Assembly: GCA_004298075.1 (NCBI GenBank)
Contig: SCRK01000054.1
Location: 1 to 50,942 of the forward strand
Reading direction: 5' to 3'
Source: a bacterium
Lineage (GTDB): Bacteria > Omnitrophota > Gorgyraeia > Gygaellales > Profunditerraquicolaceae
Length of the DNA stretch: 50,942 bases
Every line of letters starts with the position of its first letter. Within the stretch, counting starts at the first letter, position 1. The notes under the pieces were generated by a model. That model saw nothing but the letters and a program-made list of their open reading frames with translations. It did no database searches and was not told the DNA's origin. Positions 3 to 50,942 of the stretch are shown piece by piece. The position numbers were made by a program, and so were the translations under genes.

Positions 3-3000
3 TGCTTTACCGCCATGGCCTACACAAAAGGTATGGAGTCTTTTAAGCCGCCTCTAAAGATCTACCATTGGCGCAATAATCCGGGAGGAGACCTGGTAGT
101 ATGCGTGAGCTCGGCTATTGATTGCCGGAGTTTGGAAGCTATGGCGGACAGTATTTACGGCGAGTTCGATAAAGATATAGAAGATTTGATGATGAGGTTG
201 AGTTCCGTTTACGGCGAGGAAACTCTAAACCACATCAAATATTCTCTGGTTGAGGATATTAAATCCAGGCTGAGGGAAATCCTAAGTAAGTTAGGGGAAG
301 ACAATGATCAGATTTTTCTTCCCGTGATCCCTTTGCTTGTACCGGGCATGGGAGGTTCAGGCAAGAGCACATTCACGGATGAAGTGCTCCCGTATATCAG
401 TCAAGAGATCGACAAGTATATAGAAAAATTAACAGGGGAAAAAATTAATAATTTCATCAGGCGCATGGAAAGCGATAATAGCATGACGCAGTTTTTAGAT
501 AGAGCATACGACATAGGCAACCGTAAGCAGTGCGAAGATTTAAGAGACAAATTCCAGGTGCTAAGGTTTATCCGCGGCATGCTAACTGTTTTAAAGAAAA
601 ATAAAAGCGCGCTTATGACGGTTTATGACGGAGATTTGCGCGGCCGCTATAAGGTGGGGTTAAACTGCCATGGAAATATAGTCATATATATTGGAGATAA
701 AGCCAGGATTACCCTGAAAGAAAAGTCTGAGGAGCATTGGGTAAATGTTCTCAGCTTTGAGCTTTTCGAATGGGATGAGGTCGTTAACCAATTCAGATGG
801 AAAGAGCAGGAAGGGTCCCGTCTGCAGAGGATAGTCATTAATCCTAAGAATAAGAGGGAGTTTTTTACTAATCGCATAGAGCTCGACGGTAAGGAATTCA
901 GCACCATAGGTTTTGATAATACAGAATACATTATCGTTCATAATCCTGACGACGGCAGCGCTCGCCTGGTTATCGACTTGCCGTCTTTAGTCAATAAGAC
1001 AAAACTTCGTTCAGGCAAAAGAGAATGCAGGGTGGTGAAGTTTATCAATGACGCGCAAGGTAATCTTTTTGAATACAACGGCCAAAAAAGCAAGGAGCTG
1101 CGCGTAAGGACACTGTATATCCGGGCCACAGAACAAGAGAAAACAATTACACTTTACATGAATGAAGTCCCCGCGATAATTCCTAAACATAAGTGGGGGC
1201 AGGTTGCCATGGTTTTAGAGTCTTACGCAATTAACCTTAACAGATATCGCAATCAGGAGGTTTCAGGAGCAGAAAAAACCGAGATTGTAGAACAATTACC
1301 GGAAGATTTAAAAAAGATTGAAAAAGGCGTGCAAAAATTGACTGAAAAAGGAGAGCAGGAATTGAAATTAGTAATCAAGAATCTTGAGGCACTACGACAG
1401 GAAGCAATTAAGGAAGAGTTCCTTGAACGGGTCATTCCCGGTTCCGGCGTAGTGGAAATTGAAGGCATTATAGCTACTGCTTTTTCTCAAAAGATTTTAG
1501 ATAGCCTCAACGGAGTTTTTAATCCTTCGGAAAACTTTGATTTAATAAGCATTAAGAATGCCGAAGATGAGCAGTTAAGGGATTGGCCTAAAGCCATTGA
1601 GTTGGTAGCGCATTTTCTTTACCGCCTACGCCGGATAGCTCTGGTGCGTGAAAGACAAAGAGGCAGGGTCACTAACGATCCGGATTCCCTGACCGATATA
1701 ATAGAAAAAAGGGTCATTTTGCAAAGGACCGAGGAACGCTTGCTGGCTAACTTGATGTTGGGATGCCCAAGAGCTTATAATCTTAGCTTGGCAGAGCTAA
1801 TCCATGATCTTTATCGCCGCGGAATTCTGGATTCAAAAGAATTTATTAGAGAATTTGGAGAGTTATTAATGCAGAAGTTTGGGTTTAACGTAAAAGAAAT
1901 GAGCAAAGAGCTTTTTAAAACTTGTGAAGACTATATAACTAAAATTATCAGGAATCCCCGCGCCGCTTTTAGCGGAAATAACTTACACCGTTTTAATAAA
2001 AAAGGCCAACCTGATCCCTATTCGTATGAATTCTATACAAGAAGAACACATCTGCGATATGGCCTGGTTTTTGCTTTCCCCGTAGTTTATAAATATTTCC
2101 ACGATACATTTGTTAAAACATTTGAAACGGCTCGCAAGAGATTGCGTGGTTTTATGATTCCCTCTTTAATCTTCTCAGCTCCTGAAGGTACGCCAAAACT
2201 TCACTTAGGCCTGAAAAACAGGATGACTTATGCAATAAAAAAGTTTTTGGTTAAGAGCGCTCCTTACCGTTCTTTGAGAAGTATTTTGCGAGAATGCCAA
2301 CAGCGTGGTGATGTTGAGGAAGCTAGAACAATGATCCAGCGCTTATGGGTGGTTGTCTCTGAGATAGAAGCCCGCGGGGTCCATATTGAGGTGCCGTATT
2401 TTAACCTGTTTGCTACGGATTTAATACTGGACGACAGGACGCAGGAAAGGCTGGTTTTATACCACTTCAACGGCTTGTCTTTAGATGCCGATACTTACAA
2501 GAAAGCCAATTATGCTTATAATTTCGTAGCTAATGATGCCGGGTTGCTTCAGTGGCAGGCGCTGTGCGATATTTATAATCAGGAATTCTTTGATAAGCTT
2601 CCCGAAGAAAAAGAAGAATTTAAGCGGCGATACTTTGAGGTAGGCTTGGAGCGTTGCCAGCAGGTTGACGAACCGAGGAACCTGGATATTCTTGATGACC
2701 AGCTGATCTACATTGAAGAAATGCTGCAAAACGGCAAAGTTTATTCATTGCACAATTCATATCTAGAGAAATATGCCCGTAGCGTTACGCCGGACAAAAG
2801 CAAGCAAGGGAAGCTCTATGTATGGTTGTCATTGTATAAGAGGCATCTTAAACAGCTTAAATTCAAAGCACTGGAAGCGTTAATTGGCGAATTTGGGCAA
2901 GAAGTCCAAAAGAACCCCCGGTTTGTTGATCTGATCCAAAAATACGATATATATGAGGTTTTTAAAGATTTGTATCATCTTGAAGCAGATAGCCGTCAAA

Positions 3001-6000
3001 AACTAGAAACAATGGTTCAGTCTTTGTGGGCTAAGGGTAAATTTACCAGGGATGAGCGGCGCATGTTGGGGGCATGGCTTCTCGGGGACCTGAATTTTTT
3101 TGATTGCGATAAAGGTATCAATAGCAATACTGTTTCGTCCAGTCCGGTTAAGGCACCGCTTCAGATTTTGGATAGTTTTGTTCAAGCAATAAATATGGCA
3201 GAACAACGTTTGGTTGAGGTGCAGCTGCAGCTTTTGCAAAGGAAAGCCGCAGCAGAGTGTATTAAAATATTTAATGACCGCTTGATTGCCCCAGGGAAAA
3301 CTTTCATATTGGCAGAACTTCCTACGGGTGAGTTCTTAATGCAGTTAAGCGCCTTAAAATATGATATCGGCCTTTATCGAATCAGGCGCACTGGAGATTG
3401 GGTTGTTGTGAAAGGAAAGCCGTCAAGCAATAAAATTATGAAAAACTCAGCGCTTAAGACGCTTCTTGAACTTGGCCAAAGCGATATATCTTTGCTTAAT
3501 CACCCTTGCGGTCACACTTATCCTCTTCCTAATGAGATCTATAATGCTTTTTATCGCGGACATAGGTTTAATTATATCATTTCAAATAAAGGAATAAGGT
3601 TTTTTGACCTTAGCCAGATAAGAAATCCCGATACCAAGAAGTTTTTCCTGGAATTAATCCCGGAAGGCGAATTGAGCCATTTTTATTTTGATGTCCAAAA
3701 TTGCCCGGATTTAAAGTGGAACGAAGAATACAGATCATCTGACGCCTGTGTTCAATGGAATATTATTAATAATCTTATCCCATGGAGCAGCTTTAAAGCA
3801 AAAGATATAATTGATCATAAACAATCAGAGTGGATCCAATGGTTAAGCAGCAATAATCCATATGACCGAGTAAAAGCCATACGTTTTGCAAGTCATCTTA
3901 CACCAACAGAGTCAGTAGATGTTATTATTGGCTATTTTAGTGATCCCGAGGATATCGTACGTCTCCAGGCTATTATAGCGTTAGCGCAGATGGTTGAAAA
4001 AAATAGAGGAAACGAGCCTGCGCTGTGCGCCCTAAAACAATGTTTAGATAACGAAGCTGCCCTCCGGGGTTATCTATGTTTCAGAGATATTTACGGGCCA
4101 TACAAAGATTTTGCACAAAGAGGGCTGTTGACCAATCTCAAGCGCATATGCGCTTCGCCTTTACAAGCGATCGAATTTGATTTCCTATTTTTTTATTTCT
4201 CAATGAAAGCGCTTTCAATTACCGGGCCAGTAAGCTTGCCGCGGCGCGTATTAATTACCCCCGCGTTAAAAGCAAGCTCGGCAATAAAAGATAGGGTAGC
4301 CGGGATTTGCGCGCATATACCTTACCTAAGGCATGAAGGGATGCAGGGAGCAGGAGATCTGGCCGGGGTATTAAAGCTACTTGAGTATGCGGCGCTAAGC
4401 GGCCTGCGCATTGTCCAGCTTCTTCCGTTCACCATTTCAAGCTACGGCTATGGGCCTTATTCCGTTGAGGATGACCGCTTAAAAGAGCCGCTTTATATCA
4501 GTATAAATTGGCTGCTTAGATGGATCCCCTGCGAAAAGGCAGCCAGGTATCTCGATGAAAAGCGGGGGGATATCGAACAGGCAAATTCCCTGCAATTCGT
4601 GGATTTTGGCTTTTGCGAGAGAATAAAATTCCCGGCGCTTAGATATATTTGGGAAGAGTTTAACTCTAATCCTGTATATAAATGGTATCATCCGCTTAAG
4701 CTTTCCCAGGCCTCCTTCCATTTATGGCGAAAAATTAAAGACAATATTGACACGCGCCTTCTTTACAGGGTCTTAAAGCGTAAATTTAACTCCGAAATTG
4801 AGAATGGCTGGGATTGGCGGCTTTGGCCTGAAGAATTAAAATTACGTAAGAAGGCTGCCTTGAATGAGGCGAGGAAAGAGTACAGGGGGGAGATGGCATA
4901 TGAACTATTTTGCCAATGGATATTCGCCAAACAATTCCGGGAAATAAGGCGTTTCGCCGGGAGCAATAACGTTAAACTTATGTGCGATGTGCCGTTTTCT
5001 CCGGAAGGCGCGGATGTGTGGATGTATCCCGAGGCCTTTGACCTTAAGCCGCCTGATTTTAAGCGTAAGCTTAGCTGTGGGGTGGCTTCCGACATGTTCA
5101 GCCGGAACGGGCAATACTGGCAATTCTATTATTATACCTGGGAAAAAATCAAGGCGATGTGGTTCTGGGCCGCGCGTTTTATCAGCCGCTGGCTTGAGGG
5201 AATAAAGATACTGCGTTTTGATCATAATTTAGGGGCGTATAGGACCTATGTGTATACAGAGATTGAGCTGACCTTAAAAAGGCTGGGGGTATGCGGCCAT
5301 ATTGAAAATGCCATGGAGGAGGGTTTCTTCCATCCCGGGAAGAGGGAGGCTATTGCCCGGGAGGCATATTTGAGCATTTTAAACAAAGCCTACGAGTCTG
5401 CCGCGCTTGCCGCATATCGCGATTATATTTTTGAAAGCGGCGGAAAATTACGAGAATCCGGCATGGTTTTTATCGCGCGCGAAGCTAAGAATGGCGCTCA
5501 TATGCAGGGTGGTTTATGGTTTAACCCCGGGGAGGTGACCGAACAAAAGATCTTTAACAAAAAACCGAATTGGGATTTCATACGCATATCCGATAATAAT
5601 GAACGGCGGGAGGATGAGATCTCTTCTCCCGACCTGGATCATTTTAGGTGTTATCTTTTCCCCGCTGATACCGCAAATTTACCCCGCCCTGATGACATAG
5701 TAAAATTCGGCTTCTTTATTCCCGGCCCGGGGAGAAAGCTTAACCTTTTGTTAAAATGGCTGGGTAAATTATTCGGCGCCACACTAGTGGTTGAAGCCTT
5801 GGGGTTACTTACGGATTGGATCAGTGAAGATCTGGAGAAAAGCGGGGTGATAAACTATGTCCCGGCTATCTATGGCTTGACCCCATGGGATACCGGGAAC
5901 AGGTACTATTTCCCTAATCATAAGAAAGAAGCTTTTGCCACTTTGGCTTTGCATGATTCTCCGACCCCTAAATCCACCTGGGAAGAATGGCGTAATATTG

Positions 6001-45000: not shown

Positions 45001-48000
45001 AACAAAAGTGGAATCTTAGTTATTTATATCAGTGGAAGTATACGAATCTTACAGGATTCAATATTATCGTGAAGTGGCTGAAAAGATATCTTTCGATAGA
45101 ATATTATTTTGGTGATCCGGATAGGTACAGAAATAATCGCGACGCATTCTTAGTTTGCCAAAGCTATGCTGAAATGGATAAGTTGAGAGATAGAATTATC
45201 GCATCTGGAGTTGTGGATTATTTTCTAGACAGGGGAGTGCATTGTAAATACAGGTATGTTTATATATATGAGCGCGTCAAAGAATTGCTTTTTTGTGGCC
45301 TCAGTGATGGAATGCGCAATGGCGACGAACAAGATGCCCCTGAAACGGTGATGGGTTTATCTAATAAACAGGGAATTTCAGCCGCCGCCTCGCCGCTGGT
45401 AGAATATCCATATTTGCGCGACCGTGTGGCAGTTGGAATAAGAAGGATCGCGCATAATGCGATATTTGGGCTAAAACTTGATCCCATTCTTGCATTTTTA
45501 AGCGACAAAAGGGATAAGGAAGATCAAGAACTGGTAAGAAGATTTAAATCTCTAAGAACGGATGTTATTAAAAATAGAAACGGAGAAAGAAAATGGATTG
45601 AGGAATTTGCTTATATTTACCAAGAAAGAATAAAGTTATTAAGTTTAAAGACCTACAAATTGAGGGAATTTGAATTTTCCCCCATTGAATTATTACGTAC
45701 AAGTTATGATTTTATCTGCTGCAATTCCCCAAAAGATATCTTAGATACCTATTATATAAAAGAGGCTTTTCAGGCATATCTCATGTATGTGTATAATGAA
45801 AGATTTGATTGGAAGGGACGTGGACATGTTAATGCGAATGCAATCGATTTAATTTCTATGCTAATAAACATATTTGATAATGCCGTAGAGGTGACCGGAT
45901 GGCGAAAAAGGGAAAGCATGGAAAAACATGTTGCTAAGTTTCTTGTCAGCGCTTACTGCGAAGATGATATGTTTGTTATTGAGATTCAAGATAAAGGAGG
46001 GGGCATACCTGAAATCAGCTTGGAACGTGGCAAATATGAGGATAAAGGCCTTCGTTATTCGAAAATCTTTGATTACGGGTTCTCAAGGGGTAAAAAAGGA
46101 AGCGGCATAGGTTTAGCAGAGGCATTTTTCGTCATCAGTGACCATAAGGGGACAATAGAGATAAAAAATAACCCTGGCGTAGGAGCTGTTTTTGCTATCA
46201 AGTTGCCATTGGTAGGGAGTGATTCACCCGAACGCGCCAGTGGAGCCTCGCCGCTGGAGCAGGATGCTATATCGGCTCTTAAATCAGAATTCCTCAAGGT
46301 ATATAATGTGATCAGCACGCAGGAAATATTGGATTACTTAGAGGAAGATGGTTCTCTTTTTATGCGCTATACAATGGCAGGAGTCTGTGGCAGGGTAGCT
46401 TTTTTCCATGAACGTGCAGAAATATGGTATCTCCATACAGTAATGGGGATCACGGCTCCGTATGTTTCGCAGATAAGTGGCAGAGAGTACCTTTATGCTC
46501 ATGCGTTCGCTATAGACAATGAATTTGACTTAATACAAAAAGAAGCATTTGAACAAGGGTGTCCAATATCCAAAGAGGCATTGGTATTAACCGCGCCTGA
46601 TGCGTTTATATTCCCCAATGATCCAGATGCAGTAGCAATGTTTAATTTGAGAAATTTCCTCATAGGCGCTTGGTGGGGATGCCTAAACAATATTCCTTCC
46701 GACATAGAGGCCGAAGCCGCACTTAATTTTTACCTTGCAGATGAACAAATGTTCACAGTTATAGACGATACGCAATCTGGGTTGCTCAGTAGGGATGAGA
46801 TAAAACAAGCAAGCCAGAAACTGCTGCGTCAAATCCGATTTTATAAAATAGAAATATCCAGGTTAGTTCAATATAGCAAAGAAGTGAAGTTAGGTAGGGT
46901 ATTCAGACTAATATCTCTTGCTATTATGAAAAACAATAAACATGAATTAAGAAAAATTCTACAAAGGCTGTCATTTGGTGGCTCATCTCTGATTGCATCT
47001 AAAGACAAAACTATCTACATGCAAACAGCTGATTGCAGATTATTGGATACCAACAAGGGCGCCTCGCCGCTGGCGCTTGAAAGCGGGGGTTATAAAGCAA
47101 TAAGAATCAATGGCAAGGATTATTATCCATTAATCAGTCCTAAAGGCGACCTTGAATTTAGGTTTGATATTTCGGCCATAATAAGAGAAGAGCTGTCATC
47201 CATTATAGATGATTTGCAGCAAGACATGATTAAGGAGGATACATCTTTAGATATATTTAAAGCTGGATATTGGCAGACGCGCTATCTCGAATTAGAAGAG
47301 CAAGAAATCCAGCTGATAGCCGATAAACTTAGGGAGCTTCTATTATGCGCAAACCGGATTTGCATAGCCGGAATTGAGACCCTTTCATCGTTAGCTAGGC
47401 ATAAATTTATCTTGGGTATGTTTTTGGGTAATCAGCATTGCGCTGAGCATTCGATTAAGCAGGTTAAGGCACGCCAATTATTTGAAATAATGCAGTCCAC
47501 AATGAAAAGGCTGGGTATTTCATATCCGGTATATGTCTTTGGGAGCGCGGCTAAATATGGCTTGAGAGAGGGGCATGATATAGATATCGCAATTCCGGAG
47601 GAGAGATTTTTTAGGGCGCCGACGATTAACAGATTGATTGAGAATTTAAGAATTGAGCTTTCCGGGTCTTCGTATTGGGGCCCAACCATTAAAGACAGGT
47701 TATCTTTAGCGGAGCTGACCGAGAAGAGGCCGGATTTCAATCCATTCCTACACGGTATTATTTATCGAATTTCATCCGATTCTATTACCCCGATACAGGA
47801 TTATAATGAGCTACATGAAACCATAAGAAATGATACGCATGGCGCTTCGCCCCTGGTGCGCCATAGCGTACAGGAAAAAGTTATAGGTCTAAAAGATTGG
47901 CACGGTTTTATTCCCGCATTAAAACAAGAGCTAAATAAACAAGATTACCGTAAGGATTACGTAGTTATTAGGGTTTTTAAGGCAAATAGGATCAAGGTTT

Positions 48001-50942
48001 TACTTAAGACGGGAACCGACCGCGACCAAACTTCACGTATATGGAATTATTGGGAAGACTTATTGCCATATTCACAAGAGAAAATTAATCCTGAAGAGGT
48101 GATATATGCTTATCAATTGGAATTAGATCGTGAGAAATGGGAAAAAATCTACAGCCCGCTGTCTTCCGGATATCTCGACATTTATACTTACATAGAAAAT
48201 CTACCAGTAACAGCAGCAATAAGTATTTATGAACCAGAAGGGCTCAGAAGATTTCCCGAAGTTGAGTATCAATTTGTTCGACAACCTAGTAACATTTTAT
48301 TAGGCGTTTTTATACTTGATTATAATGCGGTTTATATACGCGGCGCCTCGCCGCTGGTGGCGGATAGCAGTTCTATCATTGAGAAAAATGAATTCTCTCA
48401 GTTTGTCTGGAAAAAAGATACCTCTCGTATAATAGAGGAAGGGAAGTGGGATGAGGGTCGGATAGGTATATATCCCAGTAGAGAGATTATGCATTTGCAG
48501 TTATTTGAAGAAGCAACTGAGTTAAGGATGAGTTTGGCAGTAGTCAAAGGTAACGATAGCAAGTGGAAGGCAATATTGCTTTATGTTGAAGATATGGAAG
48601 GGGAGCAAATTGAAAGGCAATACGAGTATCTTTATAAAGATAATGAAGCCATGTCTTTTGCTACGCGTTTCTATGAGGAGCGCAGGGAACTACAAATGAG
48701 GGTGGATAAATGGTTTTACAGATATTTACGGAAAAACCGGCTTATAAGCGGAGAGTTGAAAAATGGCTTAAAATGGATAATTAGCCGTGGTTTTACTCCT
48801 CCCCTTTCTGCCGTGCCGGGTTTATTTGATAGGATCTGCGGTCAGTTTGCGGACAACCTCATGAATTATCTTGAGAATTTGCGTATTGACAAACCTTTGA
48901 TTTTCCAGAAAATTCCAATGCGTTTATTGAATTCCTATGCTGATAACCGCAATAGTTTAATTGAGCTTTTAGGCTTACTTTTCGGATACCCCGAAGAGTA
49001 TATCAGTAGATTCCCTAAGCTTTCTGCTATGGGAATTGCTTTTGATGCCCGGGATTCAGGGCTTGAATTGAGCCCATACCAGTTATTTAAGCAGTATTTT
49101 GAGGATTTGCTCAGCAAGTATATTAATAATCTGAACTATGACGAAGAAAGAAACCGTCTGGTAATTGACGTGCGATACCCAAAAGAAGGGAGTTTCTTGC
49201 TGGTTAAAAAGCCCATAACCGAGGGAATTAAGCATTATCCTCTGCCGGCGGGAAAGAGGGTCGCCATAGTTGAGATCAGTAAGAACGGCCATATGCCGTT
49301 TGCCGGTAACTTCATTAAGGCGCTGAGCGAAGAAAACACAATAAGAGTATTTACTCTCGGCTCAAGTAATCCGGGTAGTATTCTTGAAGGGTATGAACCG
49401 GATATTATTTTAGCGCCTTATTCCTTAAGTCTTTGCAAACAGATCGGGGATTATCTGTTCGGTAGAAAGGGAGAGCAAATCGTATTTTATTATCCGTCAT
49501 TAGAGTCATCTCCCGGTTTTAATCTTTGTTTCAGCTTCAATAAGCCTGTCGCTAGAAAAGCAGCCGAGGCAATAAAAACGCACAAAAGCCAGCAGTCGCG
49601 CAGGGATTATCAGGGGTTTACCCGTTATGCTATGCAGTTTTGGGCTAATCTAGCCCGCTATTACGGGTTTATCGGGAGGGGGCCAAGGTATGCTAATGCC
49701 TTTGCTATAGGACATATCTGTAACGGAATAATTATGTATCCCAATCTTAATAAACGCTATGCGTTTGTTTTCGGCGCAGAAGCGGTTGCGGATGGTTTTA
49801 TTCCCGTAAGGATAGAAAAAAATACTATTATCAGATATGGTTCTCCGCATGCCGACGATATGGAGATTTCCGGAGCAGGTGTCGTAATCGCAGTTACCAA
49901 AACAGGCAAGAGGATATCAAATATAGTGTATAGCAGCGGAGGGGACAAGAGAAGGAGGAAGGAATTGAGCGACGCAACCAGGATATTGTCTCCTCAAAAC
50001 AGGATAAAAAATAAAATTTTGAGCCTTGAAAAAGAAGCGGAAGAATCGGCTTTTCAAAAACTCTACGAAAACGAGAAAAATTTCCTGGAAAGCAGGATCC
50101 GCTCTATACGCGGACAATCGAGGGGAATAATTATTTTTATGCCTCACAGAAACGACAGCCACCGTACGCACAGGAAATTTACTTCGTTATTGGAGCGGGT
50201 TTGGACTAATTTGTCTGAGGAATATGGCTTAGATGTCATCGTCGCCTATTATTTTGCCCCTTCAGCCGGAAATTTCAATACTTATTTTCTTTCTCCGCAC
50301 AATATAGACGCAAACAAGCGAGATAATGGAAAAATAAGCAGAGAGATAAATTTAACAGAACCTTTCAAGCGGGCAACAGCCATAACCGCTCCCGCGCGCT
50401 GCGGTCAGTCCGGCAAAGGCAGTCCAGATTGGATGCACTTGCCTTTTGGAGAAGCATTTTATCGGGAATCTTATTACGATGGCAAGTGCGCCTCGCCGCT
50501 GGCGCAAAGGGACAGGTGCCTGGTTGGCTTTGCAGGCGGTGTAGCTTCGGCTTTGCAGACGGCGCAGGGATCGCAAGACAGGCTTGAGGGTTTTTTCCCG
50601 AAGACATTTAAAAAATTAAACACGGCATTTAATGGTGTGCATGAATTACCGCGTTCAGATAGCTCGTTGAGAGAAGCATTGCTCCGGATAAAAAATTGGG
50701 AAAAAGTTAATTTGTTTACAGCATTGAGCTGGTGGTTTTGGATGGGGCTCGCCTCCGTTTATCCTAAGATCGGGATAAATATGCCTGTTGCGATAATTTG
50801 CACGTTCGGTTTCTGTGTATTTGGGAGCTTTTCGTTGTCTAACCGTTATTCTCGATTAAGAATTCAACGTTTACTTGGGAAAAAACAAAATAGGAAGAAT
50901 TCTGGTTCACCTGTTGTTTTGCCGCAGGGCGCCTCGCCGCTG
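3..50942 (+). CDS. Internal fragment of a giant multi-module ORF (16,980 codons in window; both ends lie outside the window)
   Basis: Manual translation in the phase starting at nt 3 met no TAA/TAG/TGA in any stretch I translated; I checked 3-9960, 14100-15500, 18120-19750 and 29580-30400 most closely. Every recognisable catalytic motif and all ~55 ASPL-type motifs start at positions divisible by 3. The ORF track lists no + ORF in this phase (all listed + ORFs are in the other two phases), as expected if a single ORF runs off both edges. Confidence 0.9.
345..371 (+). other. Walker A / P-loop (GMGGSGKST) in the 5'-most module (nt 3-3149)
   Basis: ggc atg gga ggt tca ggc aag agc aca = GxxxxGK[ST]. 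A possible Walker B, NIVIYIGD, lies about 110 aa downstream. The rest of the module is unrecognised. Confidence 0.5.
3138..3149 (+). repeat. ASPL-type punctuation motif (SSPV)
   Basis: tcc agt ccg gtt, in phase; context VSSSPVKA. Confidence 0.7.
3840..4085 (+). other. HEAT/ARM-like helical repeats (weak)
   Basis: NNPYDRVKAIRFASHL...DPEDIVRLQAIIALAQM...EAALRGYLCF resembles HEAT-like repeat spacing; no strong signature. Confidence 0.25.
4314..6255 (+). other. GH77 4-alpha-glucanotransferase (amylomaltase/MalQ-like) module
   Basis: Blocks GMQGAGDLAGVLKLLEYAALSGLRIVQLLPF, WDWRLWPEEL, NVKLMCDVPFSPEGADVWMYPEAF, ILRFDHNLGAYRTY, LVVEALG, LHDSPT and C-terminal NNPDPKSSHPNWRARMP match the conserved amylomaltase blocks in order. 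Confidence 0.85.
6597..6608 (+). repeat. ASPL-type motif variant (SSPQ) ending a Ser-rich linker after GH77
   Basis: agt tcc cct caa, in phase; context LASSPQSD. Confidence 0.45.
7370..8520 (+). other. GH13-like (alpha-amylase family) catalytic module
   Basis: GFDGARVDLAHNL at 7746-7784 (region II, nucleophile Asp), FFILETY (region III Glu), LVLVIANYDERS (region IV Asp), in the canonical order. Confidence 0.6.
8913..8993 (+). other. Predicted transmembrane helix
   Basis: VILVTAILGSILLFGPLPALTGLCLAV, an uninterrupted hydrophobic stretch followed by basic residues. Confidence 0.6.
9357..9368 (+). repeat. ASPL-type punctuation motif (SSPL)
   Basis: tcc agt cct tta; context SAASSPLATV. Confidence 0.85.
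9942..9953 (+). repeat. ASPL-type punctuation motif (ASPL)
   Basis: gct tcg ccg ctg; context RFSASPLEGG. Confidence 0.85.
10203..10214 (+). repeat. ASPL-type punctuation motif (SSPL)
   Basis: tcc tcc ccg ctt; context FDTSSPLSAK. Confidence 0.85.
10380..10960 (+). other. Sigma-70 family module #1 (regions 2 and 4)
   Basis: Region 2: DDLMQIATFG...GLARAVELFDPDNGGLFSAYAKMWIKSALSQGL. Region 4: ISARDKDILISH...IGKRHKISNERVRQILDRTTQQLKEM. Confidence 0.85.
10975..11870 (+). repeat. Six tandem Fis-type (HTH_8-like) helix-turn-helix units
   Basis: Units such as EKEWLMPALASCGGNISEAARKLVIAEQCLRKKL, ILHALDEADYSVPRAAALLSMSTDTLYQNISDLGVDL, ITAALEAAGYDISKAARMLVVNLNTLRWRIKSHKID and ITEALIFCGNRVSLVSRFLKISKDILYDRIKIYGID, plus two more divergent units upstream. 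Confidence 0.7.
12027..12038 (+). repeat. ASPL-type punctuation motif (ASPV)
   Basis: gct tcg ccc gta; context GCSASPVTLI. Confidence 0.85.
12660..12671 (+). repeat. ASPL-type punctuation motif (SSPL)
   Basis: tct tcc ccg ctt; context PIGSSPLASA. Confidence 0.85.
12780..12791 (+). repeat. ASPL-type punctuation motif (ASPV)
   Basis: gct tcg ccg gta; context LVCASPVVSP. Confidence 0.85.
12828..12926 (+). other. Internal signal-peptide-like leader (n-h-c regions, A-S-A end)
   Basis: RTRALFRSIWSANAPPLIIAAILSVFLSAPASA|NYS begins 12 codons after the ASPV motif at 12780. Confidence 0.55.
13128..13345 (+). other. TPR repeats
   Basis: GRLPEAKEVFLKILGMEKRIAPVHYSLGIIELALNNPEETRRYAETAIKLEPGHPLGYELLGYAYIAL. 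Confidence 0.6.
13611..13622 (+). repeat. ASPL-type punctuation motif (SSPI)
   Basis: tcc tcg cct att; context RSGSSPISVG. Confidence 0.8.
13764..13775 (+). repeat. ASPL-type punctuation motif (ASPL)
   Basis: gct tcg ccg ttg; context VVCASPLAYG. Confidence 0.85.
14211..14222 (+). repeat. ASPL-type motif variant (GSPL)
   Basis: gga tcc ccc ctg; context VRAGSPLGNT. Confidence 0.5.
15480..15491 (+). repeat. ASPL-type punctuation motif (ASPL)
   Basis: gct tct ccg ttg; context LSTASPLITG. Confidence 0.85.
15549..16125 (+). other. HAD-superfamily hydrolase module
   Basis: Motif I MIIFDMGKTL (Asp codon at 15561), motif II LVVATNT, motif III GKPHP, motif IV VVGDRWDIDI. Confidence 0.75.
16179..16190 (+). 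repeat. ASPL-type punctuation motif (SSPV)
   Basis: tct tct ccc gta; context VSCSSPVGFG. Confidence 0.85.
16260..17000 (+). other. Alpha/beta-hydrolase-like module (tentative)
   Basis: Nucleophile-elbow-like HLAESLGC (A-E-S-L-G at 16560-16574) after VIFTHGRG. Module size and layout are compatible with the fold. Confidence 0.45.
17136..17147 (+). repeat. ASPL-type punctuation motif (SSPL)
   Basis: tcc tcg ccg ctg; context VVSSSPLVEF. Confidence 0.85.
17259..17270 (+). repeat. ASPL-type motif variant (SSPA)
   Basis: tct tct ccc gcg; context IFSSSPARKT. Confidence 0.5.
17300..17620 (+). other. RelA/SpoT-type (p)ppGpp synthetase-like nucleotidyltransferase domain
   Basis: KKVDDIMGLRIISADMY...KKGYEATHINF matches the D-x-x-G-x-R-I-I and G-Y-x-x-x-H signatures of the RelA_SpoT synthetase domain. 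Confidence 0.7.
17829..17930 (+). other. TGS-like segment (weak)
   Basis: NKIFVMYLGQKKEGMSMQVVSLPKKSRPEDLFSI resembles the TGS beta-grasp (IFVFTPKG..I.LP.GST..DFAY). Confidence 0.3.
18111..18122 (+). repeat. ASPL-type punctuation motif (ASPL)
   Basis: gct tct cca ttg; context KPSASPLLME. Confidence 0.85.
19734..19745 (+). repeat. ASPL-type punctuation motif (SSPV)
   Basis: agt tct cct gtt; context PSSSSPVAKV. Confidence 0.85.
20040..20230 (+). other. ACT-like segment (weak)
   Basis: YVLEFDLPNRPGSRINLANFFELNKISVSQ...VHFIFELEIP resembles the ACT fold signature (D-R-P-G...). Confidence 0.3.
20440..20830 (+). other. HD-domain (p)ppGpp hydrolase (SpoT-type) module
   Basis: YIMHPIGVAEIAV (His codon at 20457), AGLLHDVIEDAG (HD at 20589-20594), LLIKIADRIHNLSTI. 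Confidence 0.85.
21213..21224 (+). repeat. ASPL-type punctuation motif (SSPV)
   Basis: agt tct ccg gtt; context GRTSSPVNRL. Confidence 0.85.
21660..21671 (+). repeat. ASPL-type punctuation motif (SSPL)
   Basis: tct tct ccg ttg; context ANGSSPLGAC. Confidence 0.85.
21879..21890 (+). repeat. ASPL-type punctuation motif (SSPL)
   Basis: tcc tct ccg ctc; context SNVSSPLKKS. Confidence 0.85.
21966..22305 (+). other. Polytopic membrane module (about 4 TM helices)
   Basis: LSTAVVIVFVVLVALFANAIFSLMI / YAIWFFTTVCILVISAVLFALVFPYLV / AFITGIIIGAAFGFLG / ALIWFSLTIIASGYLHW. Confidence 0.65.
22383..22394 (+). repeat. ASPL-type punctuation motif (SSPV)
   Basis: tcc tcc cca gta; context NKASSPVQKS. Confidence 0.85.
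23109..23120 (+). repeat. ASPL-type punctuation motif (SSPL)
   Basis: tcc tct ccg tta; context VFTSSPLNPG. Confidence 0.85.
23205..23555 (+). other. Polytopic membrane module (about 3 TM helices)
   Basis: ITLCLIVMVGIIIYLIYPLVSV / LFLAALITMAGALFSKWFF / IYSVFIILGAGIVAVFFNVV. Confidence 0.65.
23631..23642 (+). repeat. ASPL-type motif variant (SSPA)
   Basis: tca agc ccc gct; context NRSSSPAFVT. Confidence 0.5.
23745..24330 (+). other. Ser/Thr protein-kinase-like module (atypical)
   Basis: Hinge VTEYVEGKPLY and catalytic loop LLHADIKLENILI (H-x-D-x-K-x-x-N at 24126-24149). VKLIDPW stands in place of DFG, and VVARL where VAIK is expected. Confidence 0.65.
24483..24494 (+). repeat. ASPL-type punctuation motif (ASPL)
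   Basis: gcc tct ccg ctt; context SCCASPLSAE. Confidence 0.85.
24640..25420 (+). other. CheR-type SAM-dependent methyltransferase-like module
   Basis: FRIDVYSLGGSYGDEAYSIALVLYE (24888-24950) parallels the CheR block RIWSAGCSTGEEPYSLAM. Downstream VDVIFSLNVLPY parallels D.IFCRNVLIY. Confidence 0.6.
25491..25502 (+). repeat. ASPL-type punctuation motif (ASPL)
   Basis: gcc tca ccg cta; context RLSASPLRSG. Confidence 0.85.
25551..25612 (+). other. Hydrophobic leader/TM-like segment directly after a motif
   Basis: VWRLTNLVIVSSLLFLNPSYAS starts about 16 codons after ASPL at 25491. Confidence 0.45.
25857..25868 (+). repeat. ASPL-type punctuation motif (SSPI)
   Basis: tct agc ccg att; context GGSSSPIYAG. 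Confidence 0.8.
26160..26760 (+). other. Sigma-70 family module #2 (regions 2 and 4)
   Basis: GNAAARETLIMAYLPLVYGRVKRF...RDDLVQVGIYG...GFARAVELFEARIGWMGFSHYATRWIDAAM. Region 4: ISERDGDMLVSRLAEESLVSVGKRYGVSHTRVKQIVDQLKVRL. Confidence 0.85.
26829..26840 (+). repeat. ASPL-type punctuation motif (ASPL)
   Basis: gct tct ccc ctt; context LTAASPLGGP. Confidence 0.85.
26920..27560 (+). other. Possible class I SAM methyltransferase-like module (weak)
   Basis: TVAAGWAGTD (motif I-like), AIMINDF (acidic residue at the end of beta-2), LKWIKPGGFLIF. Confidence 0.3.
27666..27677 (+). repeat. ASPL-type punctuation motif (ASPL)
   Basis: gct tcg ccc ctg; context SFSASPLQSQ. Confidence 0.85.
28401..28412 (+). 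repeat. ASPL-type punctuation motif (SSPL)
   Basis: tct tct ccg cta; context RGVSSPLSDR. Confidence 0.85.
28593..28604 (+). repeat. ASPL-type punctuation motif (SSPI)
   Basis: tca tcc ccg ata; context RNSSSPIYSY. Confidence 0.8.
29100..29515 (+). other. Histidine-kinase-type ATPase (HATPase_c / GHKL) module #1
   Basis: N box IIINAMEAS, G1 IKDNGSGI, F box FEPLFTTK, G2 GSLGVGLSIAKEI, then TTVIVTLP. Confidence 0.85.
29523..29534 (+). repeat. ASPL-type punctuation motif (ASPL)
   Basis: gcc tcg ccg cta; context EFSASPLEAE. Confidence 0.85.
29586..30390 (+). repeat. Five tandem ~37-aa W/G-rich repeats (homing-endonuclease-associated-repeat-like)
   Basis: Codon-by-codon translation gives DPRNYKEWQRAGYGPLVRRSSEILGGWHNVVNKLGF / RNTWNYRQWEKSGYSRMVRRASEIFGGWENVLKEI / RNPMDRRTWIRIGHFEMAKLALSLFGCWDNLLKEV / DPRNSKEWERAGYWQMLHYTRKLLGGWINAVKAAGY / DPRNSQVWMDKGYSQPVHRLIATYGSWANALNKFGY. 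Confidence 0.6.
30520..30830 (+). other. Sigma-70 family module #3 (region 2 only; no region 4 seen)
   Basis: GNEAAREALIVIVGLRIVKSVAWSF...VDDLVQAGIYG...GFARAAEIFDPNREGGCKFTSFARIWAKWAIIGEL. Confidence 0.75.
30981..30992 (+). repeat. ASPL-type punctuation motif (SSPL)
   Basis: tct tcc ccg ctg; context VISSSPLGLP. Confidence 0.85.
31113..31199 (+). other. Internal signal-peptide-like leader #2 (A-S-A end)
   Basis: LLRAPPPALALVFMLFSNLPALASLPASA|YSY; a paralogue of the leader at 12828-12926. Confidence 0.5.
31390..31745 (+). other. TPR repeats
   Basis: AAEDFFKKGDFDEAVDSYLSVLMKEPDLPYISFRIAQAF ... YLLRADILLRLSRLEKDKSQLLEAKDNLEKALQLNPA. Confidence 0.6.
31812..31823 (+). repeat. ASPL-type punctuation motif (SSPL)
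   Basis: agc tcg ccg ctc; context LPGSSPLKNE. Confidence 0.85.
31880..32900 (+). other. Guanidino-group-modifying enzyme fold (amidinotransferase / arginine- or agmatine-deiminase-like)
   Basis: FYFEGGDVLPAGENIFVGEKVIARN (EGGD block), YFHLNTSVTFLP, and C-terminal NGYWRCSMNIGG (candidate catalytic Cys). Confidence 0.55.
33015..33026 (+). repeat. ASPL-type punctuation motif (ASPL; exact GCCTCGCCGCTG)
   Basis: gcc tcg ccg ctg; context QHSASPLASS. Confidence 0.9.
33678..33689 (+). repeat. ASPL-type punctuation motif (ASPL; exact GCCTCGCCGCTG)
   Basis: gcc tcg ccg ctg; context DRQSASPLGSY. Confidence 0.9.
34630..35060 (+). other. Nudix hydrolase module
   Basis: Perfect Nudix box GHLAVGENAQESLAREMEEEIGV (G-x5-E-x7-R-E-U-x-E-E-x-G-U) at 34749-34817. 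Confidence 0.8.
35244..35255 (+). repeat. ASPL-type motif variant (GSPL)
   Basis: ggc tcg ccg ctg; context YIAGSPLRQE. Confidence 0.6.
35781..35792 (+). repeat. ASPL-type punctuation motif (SSPL)
   Basis: tcc tct ccg ctg; context EGASSPLAQS. Confidence 0.85.
35976..35987 (+). repeat. ASPL-type punctuation motif (SSPL)
   Basis: tct tcg ccg ttg; context GTASSPLARR. Confidence 0.85.
36270..36530 (+). other. GNAT acetyltransferase-like module (tentative)
   Basis: LGIYVHPRYRNLRNGKLLIYNLDEIL (motif A-like) and DHQSYSYFKEKYGA (motif B-like). Confidence 0.4.
36690..36701 (+). repeat. ASPL-type punctuation motif (SSPL)
   Basis: tct tcg ccc ctc; context EYSSSPLTPQ. Confidence 0.85.
37206..37217 (+). 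repeat. ASPL-type punctuation motif (ASPL)
   Basis: gct tcg ccg ctg; context ESGASPLEDA. Confidence 0.85.
38079..38090 (+). repeat. ASPL-type punctuation motif (SSPL)
   Basis: tcc tca ccg ctg; context DSGSSPLTLN. Confidence 0.85.
38390..38620 (+). other. GHKL-ATPase-like segment #3 (divergent)
   Basis: GLRNVVQHCRNGIAVVL ... AAAIIDNGSGFQNE (G1-like) ... KSMGMDLSLM (G2-like). Confidence 0.35.
38847..38858 (+). repeat. ASPL-type punctuation motif (SSPL)
   Basis: tct tcc ccc ctt; context FGVSSPLSFK. Confidence 0.85.
38961..39197 (+). other. Polytopic membrane module (about 3 TM helices)
   Basis: GLSLGFLFPALAQAFF / MLVVTIIEALLCRQLF / FLGFGIGVFLAGMYTGFPITLSLLSFLISLYYMF. Confidence 0.6.
39216..39227 (+). 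repeat. ASPL-type motif variant (RSPL)
   Basis: cgt tcg ccg cta; context EKIRSPLIRA. Confidence 0.5.
40002..40013 (+). repeat. ASPL-type punctuation motif (ASPL)
   Basis: gcc tct ccc ctg; context HPAASPLAHR. Confidence 0.85.
40310..40500 (+). other. Transglutaminase/papain-like Cys-His-Asp candidate (tentative)
   Basis: DPDGYCDFTSAFLAKLL (G-x-C-x-x-x-[AS]-x-F), His about 36 aa later in HYEDHMFI, then NLYIDL. Confidence 0.3.
41067..41078 (+). repeat. ASPL-type punctuation motif (SSPL)
   Basis: tcc tcg ccg ctg; context ARNSSPLVNI. Confidence 0.85.
41190..42030 (+). other. Radical SAM enzyme module with C-terminal Cys-rich (SPASM/twitch-like) region
   Basis: IHPTSICNNRCIGCIG (C-x3-C-x2-C at 41217-41240), FSGLTGEPL (GGEPL-like), and SCNLPKSCLNCVACQ...YPCSH at 41931-42020. 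Confidence 0.8.
42207..42218 (+). repeat. ASPL-type punctuation motif (ASPL; exact 12-mer, extended GCCTCGCCGCTGGCGCAA)
   Basis: gcc tcg ccg ctg gcg caa; context NIAASPLAQG. Confidence 0.9.
42336..42347 (+). repeat. ASPL-type punctuation motif (ASPL; exact 12-mer, extended GCCTCGCCGCTGGCGCAA)
   Basis: gcc tcg ccg ctg gcg caa; context GISASPLAQE. Confidence 0.9.
42378..43390 (+). other. NAD(P)-dependent epimerase/dehydratase (extended SDR) module
   Basis: ITITGHTGDIGATLL (G-x-x-G-x-x-G at 42396-42416) and YDISK (Y-x-x-x-K at 42921-42935). Confidence 0.7.
43560..44540 (+). other. 3-dehydroquinate-synthase-like sugar-phosphate cyclase module
   Basis: [85 protein letters not shown] and HGEAVGIDIL match DHQS-family blocks. 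Confidence 0.85.
44616..44627 (+). repeat. ASPL-type punctuation motif (ASPL; exact 12-mer)
   Basis: gcc tcg ccg ctg; context SRSASPLAEI. Confidence 0.9.
44706..44774 (+). other. Pol-beta-type nucleotidyltransferase signature (tentative)
   Basis: GSSRYLSTGSRFVPLDYISDVDV (G-S ... D-x-D). Confidence 0.4.
45387..45398 (+). repeat. ASPL-type punctuation motif (ASPL; exact 12-mer)
   Basis: gcc tcg ccg ctg; context SAAASPLVEY. Confidence 0.9.
45850..46215 (+). other. Histidine-kinase-type ATPase (HATPase_c / GHKL) module #2
   Basis: N box LINIFDNAVEV, G1 IQDKGGGIPE, G2 KKGSGIGLAEAF, then GAVFAIKLP. Confidence 0.8.
46245..46256 (+). repeat. ASPL-type punctuation motif (ASPL; exact 12-mer)
   Basis: gcc tcg ccg ctg; context ASGASPLEQD. 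Confidence 0.9.
46380..46545 (+). other. Second Cys-His-Asp candidate (weak)
   Basis: MAGVCGRVAFFHE, His about 38 aa later in LYAHAFAIDNEFDL; same spacing pattern as 40310-40500. Confidence 0.2.
47061..47072 (+). repeat. ASPL-type punctuation motif (ASPL; exact 12-mer)
   Basis: gcc tcg ccg ctg gcg c; context NKGASPLALE. Confidence 0.9.
47470..47620 (+). other. Pol-beta-type nucleotidyltransferase core
   Basis: VYVFGSAAKYGLREGHDIDIAIPE (hG[GS]-x9-D-x-D). Confidence 0.6.
47844..47855 (+). repeat. ASPL-type punctuation motif (ASPL)
   Basis: gct tcg ccc ctg; context THGASPLVRH. Confidence 0.85.
48345..48356 (+). repeat. ASPL-type punctuation motif (ASPL; exact 12-mer)
   Basis: gcc tcg ccg ctg; context IRGASPLVAD. 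Confidence 0.9.
50490..50501 (+). repeat. ASPL-type punctuation motif (ASPL; exact 12-mer, extended GCCTCGCCGCTGGCGCAA)
   Basis: gcc tcg ccg ctg gcg caa; context GKCASPLAQR. Confidence 0.9.
50712..50850 (+). other. Two predicted TM helices
   Basis: LFTALSWWFWMGLASVY ... MPVAIICTFGFCVFGSFSL. Confidence 0.55.
50931..50942 (+). repeat. ASPL-type punctuation motif (ASPL; exact 12-mer) forming the last four codons of the window
   Basis: gcc tcg ccg ctg; context PQGASPL. Confidence 0.9.

Follow-up and report, generated by a model that had tools for sequence, protein, structure and literature searches.

A recurrent Ser-Pro junction peptide joins about 50 modules in a giant open reading frame of probable Omnitrophota type

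The stretch of DNA analyzed here (contig SCRK01000054.1, positions 1 to 50,942 of the forward strand, referred to as the window) consists of A, C, G and T only, has a GC content of 44% and is filled on the + strand by one reading frame (nt 3 to 50942) of 16,980 codons that is open at both ends and represents an internal fragment of a giant gene. The encoded chain is made up of about 50 nonhomologous, protein-sized modules placed head to tail and linked by short flexible linkers with a conserved peptide, [SGAC]-[AS]-S-P-[LVI], hereafter the junction peptide, which marks the module boundaries. A first-pass annotation of this DNA had proposed a single uninterrupted open reading frame (ORF), and a scan of that phase (frame +3, translation table 11) indeed yielded 0 stops in 16,980 codons. 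The start and the stop of the gene were both missing from frame +3 between nt 3 and 50942, so that the gene, as had been supposed, is larger than the window and both of its ends lie beyond it. The other five frames contained 586 to 1369 stops each, with longest open stretches of 85 to 284 codons, and stops were dense in both alternative + frames along the sub-windows. A period-3 signal and the pattern GC1>GC3>GC2 (GC content by codon position) were found in all 33 consecutive 1.5-kb sub-windows, and coding periodicity throughout a stop-free frame upholds the interpretation as one giant gene. The earlier estimate of e^-815 for the chance occurrence of such a frame was arithmetically correct, and the stop density of the other frames (3.5 to 8% of codons) gave a probability of the same order or smaller. 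The largest ORFs outside frame +3, previously described as short shadow ORFs, were 163 to 276 aa long, lay on the minus strand and had no Pfam match, and tRNA and Rfam searches of the window found none. Genes on the opposite strand and embedded RNAs were thereby ruled out, and recoded stop codons were irrelevant, since frame +3 held no stop of any type.

All Pfam and PDB matches sat in frame +3, and most of them covered the profile in full length. When the radical SAM module described below was compared with its homologue on contig L001, the ratio of nonsynonymous to synonymous substitution rates (dN/dS) was 0.21 to 0.31 at a dS of ~0.8 to 1.2, and nucleotide identity at the three codon positions was 0.72, 0.82 and 0.59, respectively. 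These values indicate that purifying selection acts on the protein, yet in a more relaxed manner than is usual for core enzymes. We regard the giant ORF, judged from its sequence, as real coding sequence, the support for its predicted expression being indirect and coming from dN/dS and the intact catalytic motifs.

The core of the junction peptide, [AS]-S-P-[LVI], occurred in 50 in-frame copies of 12 nt on the + strand (range, nt 3138 to 50942), against 1.8 ± 1.4 expected (2,000 shuffles; maximum, 9), with a median spacing of 277 aa and a small residue (S, G, A, C or T) at position −1. ASPL was the commonest version, and an unbiased k-mer scan returned ASPL (24 copies versus 0.39 expected, P = 2e-34) and SSPL (16 versus 0.41) as the most over-represented 4-mers of the chain. 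The first 25 copies start at nt 3138, 4152, 9357, 9942, 10203, 12027, 12660, 12780, 13611, 13764, 15480, 16179, 17136, 18111, 19734, 21213, 21660, 21879, 22383, 23109, 24483, 25491, 25857, 26829 and 27666, and the remaining 25 start at nt 28401, 28593, 29523, 30981, 31812, 33015, 33678, 35781, 35976, 36690, 37206, 38079, 38847, 40002, 41067, 42207, 42336, 44616, 45387, 46245, 47061, 47844, 48345, 50490 and 50931.

The position of these copies relative to recognizable domains was consistent along the chain. Pfam envelopes, which total 2,582 aa, contained 0 copies versus 7.6 expected. A HAD hydrolase module (aa 5160 to 5396, nt 15480 to 16190, + strand; Pfam HAD at aa 5181 to 5371) was bracketed by copies at aa 5160 and 5393; residues 16 to 214 of the 237 residues of PDB entry 4ex6_A align to aa 5178 to 5376, from which the homologue's termini extrapolate to ~aa 5163 and 5399. 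Copies were likewise found 4 and 12 aa past the ends of the HATPase_c domains, and the Rossmann motif of the epimerase module lay ~20 aa past a copy. Homology to the relative P0006 opened right after one copy and closed at the next, with unrelated sequence on both flanks, and homology to P0019 opened at a copy. Over the 12 residues upstream of the copies, small and polar amino acids were over-represented (z = 5.5); background composition was reached again within ~12 residues. In a confident AlphaFold model of aa 14060 to 14900 (predicted local distance difference test [pLDDT], 85.7; predicted template modeling score, 0.80), the cores of the epimerase and the cyclase scored >90, and all three junction copies fell in low-pLDDT segments, two of them below 50 and one in a block averaging 57. 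We found no enrichment of Met after the junction peptide, as internal translation starts would give. The junction peptide is thus solid as an observation in the window and, as described below, in one relative.

The junction was conserved also as DNA, with the 15-nt consensus GC GCC TCG CCG CTG G, between nt 29514 and 50942 on the + strand. The GC-rich core CCTCGCCGCTG, with at most 1 mismatch, was present in 19 copies on the + strand and 0 on the − strand, all in one codon phase, and encodes (A/S/G)-S-P-L. A repeated motif of 12 to 19 nt had been pointed out before as a possible point of misassembly; the repeat itself is real (19 copies in one phase), and beyond the risk that it poses to assembly, it encodes the junction peptide, which is conserved and in frame and is more informative than any other feature of the window. 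Among xSPL copies, the exact codons TCG CCG CTG were used in 13 of 23 in the 3′ third of the window (P = 5e-22 given the codon usage of the ORF) and in 2 of 17 in the 5′ two-thirds, in which the peptide was retained with scrambled codons; selection on the peptide is therefore indicated. In the 3′ third, the codon after the motif began with G in 18 of 22 cases, and the codon before it often ended in GC. TCG, which accounts for ~10% of Ser codons, was followed by CCG in 20 of 52 motif copies in the window (P = 2e-16) and in 13 of 30 in the relative P0155 (P = 5e-12), versus 3.4% expected, and in 3 of 50 (window) and 0 of 26 (P0155) Ser-Pro dipeptides outside the motif. This signature was weak (4/29) in the 5′ two-thirds of the window. 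Because dS in the module common to both proteins is ~1, recent common origin of the signature is unlikely, and selection on the codons is more likely. After correction for GC content, no excess RNA folding energy was detected at the DNA motif (t = −0.7). Pausing of the ribosome, recombination at the motif or conversion of short tracts could each account for the conservation of the DNA in the 3′ part.

The window terminates exactly on a motif copy (nt 50924 to 50942, ending in GGC GCC TCG CCG CTG), with a chance probability of ~0.01, and contig L001 begins within a few codons of a copy. Twelve other related fragments do not end in this way, and a systematic placement of contig ends on the motif was rejected on these grounds; the window may end there by coincidence or because strain heterogeneity broke the assembly locally. 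GC3 drops from ~0.45-0.55 to 0.32-0.41 over the last ~9 kb (nt 42003 to 50942), along with overall GC (from ~0.46 to 0.37-0.41), and heterogeneity of this kind inside a single ORF would fit modules of mosaic origin.

Relatives were collected by an exhaustive HMMER search with aa 13701 to 14850, followed by local BLAST to split the matches by module. Among the 23,598 matches, the best were long proteins of 1.4 to 5.6 thousand amino acids (kaa) aligned over two or three stretches, and ordinary 3-dehydroquinate synthase (DHQS) proteins of ~380 aa ranked beneath them. By module, the closest matches were P0006 for the radical SAM module (61% identity, window aa 13676 to 14063), P0019 (MCM8780818.1) for the epimerase (50%, aa 14112 to 14484) and P0007, with P0009 and P0012 being similar, for the DHQS-like module (55 to 58%, aa 14487 to 14856). 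The first-pass annotation had linked giant proteins of this size to Omnitrophota, and this attribution gained support: the six top relatives that carry a name, with 50 to 63% identity over the three modules, are all NCBI proteins from metagenome-assembled genomes (MAGs) of "Candidatus Omnitrophota/Omnitrophica" (the 15-member cluster of P0006, which includes MBU2034776.1 of 7,224 aa, and P0019, P0007, P0009, P0011 and P0015), and the domain repertoire fits the published class. One lower-ranked match came from Poribacteria.

The closest sequence relatives found were MBU2034776.1 (P0155; 7,224 aa, truncated by the contig end) and MBU1929583.1 (P0006), from GCA_018825985.1 and GCA_018824565.1. 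Like the window, they carry the radical SAM module (61 to 63% identical) with the same junction motif on either side, and P0155 is enriched in the motif over the whole protein, prefers TCG-CCG and has a similar GC content (43% versus 44%). Unlike the window, their neighboring modules are unrelated, just this one module being in common, and the motif takes the form SSSP followed by V, I or A instead of (A/S)SPL; the variant [AS]-S-S-P-[VIA] was counted 30 times in P0155 versus 1.1 expected. Among 150 HMMER matches, only P0006 was enriched in the junction peptide (12 copies versus 0.45), with 2 copies each in P0019 and P0004, and ten genes beside the relative's giant gene held 1 copy in 2,961 aa versus ~12 at the rate of the giant. 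A general feature of the proteome was thus rejected, the peptide being near absent from the neighboring genes and from 147 of 150 matches.

Whereas the window contains neither gene end, the giant gene in the two relative MAGs runs off the contig at its 5′ end and has a real 3′ stop, after which ordinary genes follow. These genes (L001, nt 10266 to 20196; L002, nt 21833 to 31763) encode two PilZ proteins, CheR (on the opposite strand), an ATP-binding cassette exporter, PfkB and a 3-deoxy-D-manno-octulosonate/lipopolysaccharide block with KdsB, KdsA, KpsF-like, KdsC-like, LptC and LptB-like proteins.

A different peptide recurred in a second Omnitrophota lineage. P0011 (MDP3921414.1, a complete gene of 5,619 aa with a GC content of 55%) carries [D/T/V]-R-S-E-L-R, with 6 copies of RSExR versus 0.19 expected at aa 538, 585, 2111, 3424, 3989 and 5327 (contig L018, nt 7612, 7753, 12331, 16270, 17965 and 21979), and its homologue P0008 carries RSE[TIMS]R at aa 563, 2098, 3430 and 4046 (4 versus 0.09 expected). 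The RSExR copies lay just upstream of modules such as the epimerase, in unrelated flanks and with fully scrambled codons. RSExR was absent from the window, P0155, P0002 and P0003, and the k-mer scan found no recurring junction peptide in the other long relatives P0002 to P0005, P0007, P0010 and P0012. This distribution suggests that junction peptides may be lineage specific.

Domains along the chain were annotated by scanning tiles of 1,000 aa and overlapping chunks of 5,000 aa against Pfam and by PDB sequence searches, and all features listed here lie on the + strand. At least 17 distinct Pfam families were matched, none of them dominating (at most 2 or 3 copies; HATPase_c twice, HTH_8 three times), and ~85% of the chain had no Pfam match, many modules being without known relatives. 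A self-BLAST of the ORF gave 0 pairs at E < 1e-5. The N-terminal 1,045 aa had no Pfam match and contained, at aa 115 to 122 (nt 345 to 368), the Walker A/P-loop motif GMGGSGKS that had been noticed earlier at nt 345. HEAT repeats (aa 1276 to 1351, nt 3828 to 4055; PF13646, E = 3e-9) were followed by a full-length GH77 4-alpha-glucanotransferase (aa 1441 to 2086, nt 4323 to 6260; PF02446, E = 2e-63, profile positions 5 to 462 of 465; PDB amylomaltases with E down to 7e-21). A DNA-binding region at aa ~3497 to 3909 (nt 10491 to 11729) combined weak sigma-70 r2/r4 matches, three Fis-type HTH_8 stretches (E = 2e-25) and HTH_23. In the HAD module, motif I was degenerate (aa 5185 to 5190, nt ~15555 to 15572), reading FDMGKT in place of DxDG[TV] with loss of the second catalytic Asp; this module may be inactive or use a variant mechanism. 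Pfam and PDB matches identified an HD/RelA-SpoT-type hydrolase (aa 6796 to 6960, nt 20388 to 20882). A second Walker A motif (aa 7270, nt 21810) lay ahead of hydrophobic cluster A, with ~3 to 4 transmembrane-like segments (aa 7327 to 7401, nt 21981 to 22205; Kyte-Doolittle peaks up to 2.9), and cluster B, with ~4 such segments by the same measure, followed at aa 7729 to 7850 (nt 23187 to 23552); the hydropathy scan also returned isolated strongly hydrophobic 19-mers besides these two clusters.

Downstream of the hydrophobic clusters, a Hanks-type Ser/Thr protein kinase (aa 7925 to 8063, nt 23775 to 24191; PF00069, E = 5e-14; PknA/PknB, E = 6e-9), the GHKL ATPase of a histidine-kinase module (aa 9732 to 9837, nt 29196 to 29513), with a junction motif 4 aa downstream, and a NUDIX hydrolase with a perfect NUDIX box (aa 11554 to 11687, nt 34662 to 35063) were recognized. 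The radical SAM (SPASM-like) module occupies nt 41067 to 42218, with junction motifs at aa 13689 and 14069, an intact CX3CX2C and 61 to 63% identity to MBU1929583.1. The NAD-dependent epimerase/dehydratase module begins with the junction copy at aa 14112 (nt 42336 to 43388), from which point it is 50% identical to MCM8780818.1, and is followed by the remnant of a ROK-kinase N terminus, VFDIGGASVR, in a disordered linker (nt 43389 to 43433; residues 404 to 418 of the AlphaFold model, pLDDT < 50). This ROK domain is complete in P0001 to P0005 between the epimerase and the DHQS-like cyclase and is deleted in frame in the window. The DHQS-like sugar-phosphate cyclase (aa 14487 to 14856, nt 43461 to 44570; 55 to 58% identical to Omnitrophota proteins) is complete, with Pfam matches to its N-terminal (E = 6e-33) and C-terminal (E = 2.5e-24) domains. 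A second GHKL ATPase/histidine-kinase module (aa 15280 to 15403, nt 45840 to 46211) has a junction motif on either side (aa 15129 and 15415); farther downstream are a weakly matching Pol-beta-type nucleotidyltransferase motif region (aa 15836 to 15871, nt 47508 to 47615) and a PIG-L-type de-N-acetylase with HxDD present (aa 16614 to 16730, nt 49842 to 50192). Further Pfam matches were to TPR repeats and, weakly, to CheR. Catalytic motifs were intact in the radical SAM (CX3CX2C), NUDIX (NUDIX box), both GHKL, SDR (GxxGxxG and YxxxK), HD and PIG-L modules.

The cassette of radical SAM, epimerase, ROK and DHQS-like modules (window nt 41067 to 44570) recurs in the long proteins P0002, P0003, P0013, P0014 and P0016, whose sources differ widely, and some of its carriers are proteins of 2.4 to 2.6 kaa with a eukaryotic (fungal-like) appearance. 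This recurrence may be a sign of a conserved pathway, of the sugar or cyclitol type, that is encoded as a fusion. The sigma-70/HTH_8 DNA binders share the chain with the transmembrane clusters and with the radical SAM, ATP-dependent kinase and NUDIX modules. The module content argues that much of the protein is probably cytoplasmic, contrary to the view of an extracellular coat; a mainly extracellular location fits poorly, because most of the recognizable modules are cytoplasmic in type.

Giant genes are well documented in Omnitrophota. ORFs of >20 kb were found in most genomes of several Omnitrophota classes (Seymour et al. 2023), and ORFs of up to 85,804 aa have been described, including an "Archaeovorin" type with glycosyl hydrolases, SAM enzymes and NUDIX hydrolases (West-Roberts et al. 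2023, bioRxiv 10.1101/2023.11.21.568195). A recent study reports 3,650 proteins of at least 10 kaa and up to 147,155 aa, with at least one in 94% of complete genomes; in its catalogue, 94% carry either transmembrane helices or signal peptides and singletons make up 80% at 30% identity, and class 1, the "multi-enzyme metabolic cluster," centers on HATPase_c, HAD, HD, radical SAM, sugar-metabolism enzymes and HEAT/TPR scaffolds (Nielsen & Lui 2026, bioRxiv 10.64898/2026.06.07.730766). The statement in the first-pass annotation that proteins above 10,000 aa are very rare accordingly holds for bacteria overall and fails within Omnitrophota. The type example of the multi-enzyme/Archaeovorin giants is the 39,678-aa protein of Velamenicoccus archaeovorus LiM. 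The window resembles this group in its uninterrupted ORF of >10 kaa with many Pfam families and none dominating, in its repertoire (HATPase_c, HAD, HD, radical SAM, NUDIX, sugar enzymes and HEAT/TPR), which agrees with modules 1 and 2 of Nielsen & Lui and with the Archaeovorin list of West-Roberts et al., in its transmembrane segments, divergent domains and long unannotated stretches, and in having almost no sequence relatives; it differs, within a fragment that ends short of both gene ends, in having no glycosyltransferase or clear methyltransferase (the weak CheR match only). It is probably a sequence-unique new example of the modular multi-enzyme (Archaeovorin-like) giants of Omnitrophota. 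The repetitive adhesin class was discarded because self-BLAST shows no internal repeat, and the tandem-repeat scaffold/dockerin giants (classes 2 and 3) were rejected together with it, given 0 self-BLAST pairs and no dockerin, TSP3, cadherin or Ig matches. Also rejected was a nonribosomal peptide synthetase/polyketide synthase (NRPS/PKS) megasynthase, as no condensation/adenylation/thiolation or ketosynthase (KS)/acyltransferase/acyl carrier protein Pfam families were matched.

With regard to the role of the junction, the giant gene would be translated as one chain and anchored in the membrane by the transmembrane clusters, with modules mostly of cytoplasmic type; the junction peptide would serve as a recognition element at the module boundaries, and a lineage-specific protease would cut there and separate the modules as in a polyprotein. 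A processing site of a polyprotein-like precursor is the role that we tentatively put first, without placing great confidence in it, because a fixed tetrapeptide, unconserved flanks and differences between lineages resemble recognition sites and not passive linkers. A recurrent short consensus peptide between functional units in disordered segments is also what such a reading expects. Several points weigh against this picture of an Omnitrophota polyprotein. Pfam scans and PDB sequence searches of the window returned no protease domain, and Pro at P1′ or P2′ is disfavored by many proteases. A protease site does not need codon conservation, which means that something also acts at the level of DNA, RNA or translation. 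The transmembrane calls are peaks of a Kyte-Doolittle hydropathy scan, contiguity of the contig is assumed, and the SecA_DEAD, C39 and S8 domains of most full-length giants were not found by Pfam or PDB searches, which is weak evidence given the missing gene ends. As no phylogenetic marker lies in the window, the phylum was assigned from best hits, and these cover three modules (~1,150 of 16,980 aa). For the rest of the ORF, protein searches and protein-guided contig scans found no close relatives. An indexed protein search with aa 1 to 5000 gave no match at E ≤ 1e-10, and one with the radical SAM and epimerase modules (nt 41028 to 43472) gave a single irrelevant match and failed to return P0006 (62% identity over 389 aa), which is in the same underlying collection; negatives of this word-indexed search are therefore not readable as absence for this family. 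An exact 44-mer of the window was absent from the metagenome and viral contigs. Protein-guided scans of genome contigs returned nothing beyond the already known Omnitrophota contig, and those of metagenome and viral contigs returned distant radical SAM proteins or nothing.

How far these points reach can be judged against the alternatives. A lineage outside Omnitrophota, such as another phylum of the Planctomycetes-Verrucomicrobia-Chlamydiae group or a candidate phylum, might have evolved multi-enzyme giants independently: close homologues cover just ~7% of the ORF, several top matches are unnamed Logan/ENA/JGI proteins, proteins of at least 30 kaa occur in Verrucomicrobiota as well, and there is the Poribacteria match. 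We consider this improbable in view of the six named relatives and of the junction motif and codon signature, which are specifically common to the window and an Omnitrophota MAG protein. It is hardly credible that the ORF is an assembly artefact, that is, a chimera of genes or strains joined at the short motif or a misassembled repeat. A repeated motif of 15 to 20 nt on which the window ends would invite such an error, and the source contig was not recovered from the collections searched, but identical stretches of at most ~20 nt are below usual assembly k-mers, the DNA-level repeat is present at just ~19 of 50 junctions, and random joins in mixed phases would not have preserved a frame that is stop free over 51 kb with a uniform coding signal; moreover, independent Omnitrophota MAGs show the same type of architecture over >21 kb, and long-read complete genomes confirm genes of this kind.

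The remaining alternatives concern the junction itself, and they and processing are not mutually exclusive. It is possible, although we hold it to be on the unlikely side, that the junction is an uncleaved hinge and at the same time a site programmed to slow translation (a rare UCG ahead of CCG), assisting cotranslational folding of a membrane-anchored, beads-on-a-string multi-enzyme. Placement in low-pLDDT linkers rich in Gly, Ser and Pro would suit a hinge, as would the missing protease domain, and the enrichment of TCG-CCG (TCG being an infrequent Ser codon) in the motif of two lineages at a dS of ~1, together with its avoidance by other Ser-Pro dipeptides, would suit a pause; simple linkers, however, are usually variable and of low complexity instead of a fixed tetrapeptide, the 5′ two-thirds kept the peptide with a weak codon signature, and the charged RSExR with scrambled codons in the second lineage is at odds with a flexible hinge as well as with a pause that depends on specific codons. 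Conservation of synonymous positions and adjacent half-codons (NGC before and G after) could equally reflect a 15-nt in-frame DNA site (GCGCCTCGCCGCTGG) at which modules are inserted, lost or exchanged by site-specific or microhomology recombination, a frame-keeping shuffling of cassettes. All copies being direct and in the same strand and phase (19 versus 0), the radical SAM module common to P0006 with both neighbors different and breakpoints at the motif, the end of the window (probably the contig end) on a copy, and the heterogeneous GC3 all agree with such a site. We nevertheless think it quite unlikely, as the order radical SAM, epimerase, (ROK) and DHQS recurs in the distant relatives P0002 and P0003, which have no motif, so that this junction predates the motif; the 5′ peptide survived scrambling of its codons, which speaks for selection at the peptide level, the ends of the 12 related fragments are not systematically on the motif, and no recombinase was found in the window. 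Still less probable is a modification site, at which the linker Ser would be O-glycosylated or would be phosphorylated by the chain's own Hanks-type kinase. In its favor are the invariant Ser-Pro, placed in linkers that are exposed and disordered, and a Ser/Thr kinase and several sugar-handling modules in the same chain, and bacterial O-oligosaccharyltransferases favor Ser in disordered stretches rich in Ala, Ser and Pro. Modification would, however, leave the placement at boundaries, the codon signature and the unrelated RSExR unexplained, and proline-directed action is not known for bacterial Hanks kinases.

Processing at recurrent short sites is typical of viral polyproteins. The nearest bacterial analogue on record is the pair of P97/P102 adhesins of Mycoplasma hyopneumoniae, for which semitryptic peptides revealed cleavage at S/T-X-F|X-D/E, a motif located in disordered regions (PMC3322551, PMC4772806). 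As in those adhesins, a short lineage-specific consensus recurs in disordered segments between units of the window, and there the motif made cleavage sites predictable; unlike in the adhesins, ~50 junctions occur in 17 kaa, the chain contains enzymes, the codons are conserved and cleavage is putative. Fusions of complete enzymes in one chain via flexible linkers are also found in the eukaryotic pentafunctional AROM protein and in PKS/NRPS megasynthases. The window is like AROM in joining several enzymes, a DHQS-family module included, and unlike AROM and the megasynthases in having no single recognizable pathway, no iteration, no carrier-protein, KS, A or C domains and a length 10 to 100 times greater.

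The size of the ORF is no longer surprising, because Omnitrophota giants have been documented by the thousand; the ORF itself is of a documented kind, and what is new here is the recurring Ser-Pro junction peptide joining about 50 modules. Neither the peptide nor its codon signature is described in Nielsen & Lui 2026 or West-Roberts et al. 2023, and we found no report pairing polyproteins with Omnitrophota in the searchable literature, outside which a description is possible. The central question on giant genes is whether their product acts as one chain or is cut, and where; information on cleavage points was lacking, and giants were for that reason not split for structure prediction (West-Roberts et al. 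2023, bioRxiv 10.1101/2023.11.21.568195). The junction motif predicts about 50 exact positions at which neo-N-termini or semi-specific peptides would be expected, and it offers a rule for segmenting giants into foldable modules, according to which the one multi-junction segment that was modeled behaved as predicted. The codon-level signature suggests a mechanism based on translation or recombination, which could account for the assembly of giant genes and for the upkeep of their reading frame. Host or prey interaction has been proposed in the literature as the role of giant proteins, and the cytoplasmic module content sits uneasily with the prevailing picture of an extracellular, prey-degrading coat. 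As a broader and speculative extension, the multi-enzyme giants of Omnitrophota might be bacterial polyproteins of whole-protein cassettes, each lineage with its own boundary peptide that a dedicated factor, in the likeliest case a protease, would recognize; it is likewise only conceivable that in the Ser-Pro lineages the fixed codon string (GCC TCG CCG CTG) slows the ribosome or serves in-frame recombination. If the polyprotein reading is true, a single mRNA would give rise to a large part of the enzymes and regulators in the cell, as in RNA viruses, and the junction code would allow giants that have been called unannotatable to be cut computationally into modules.

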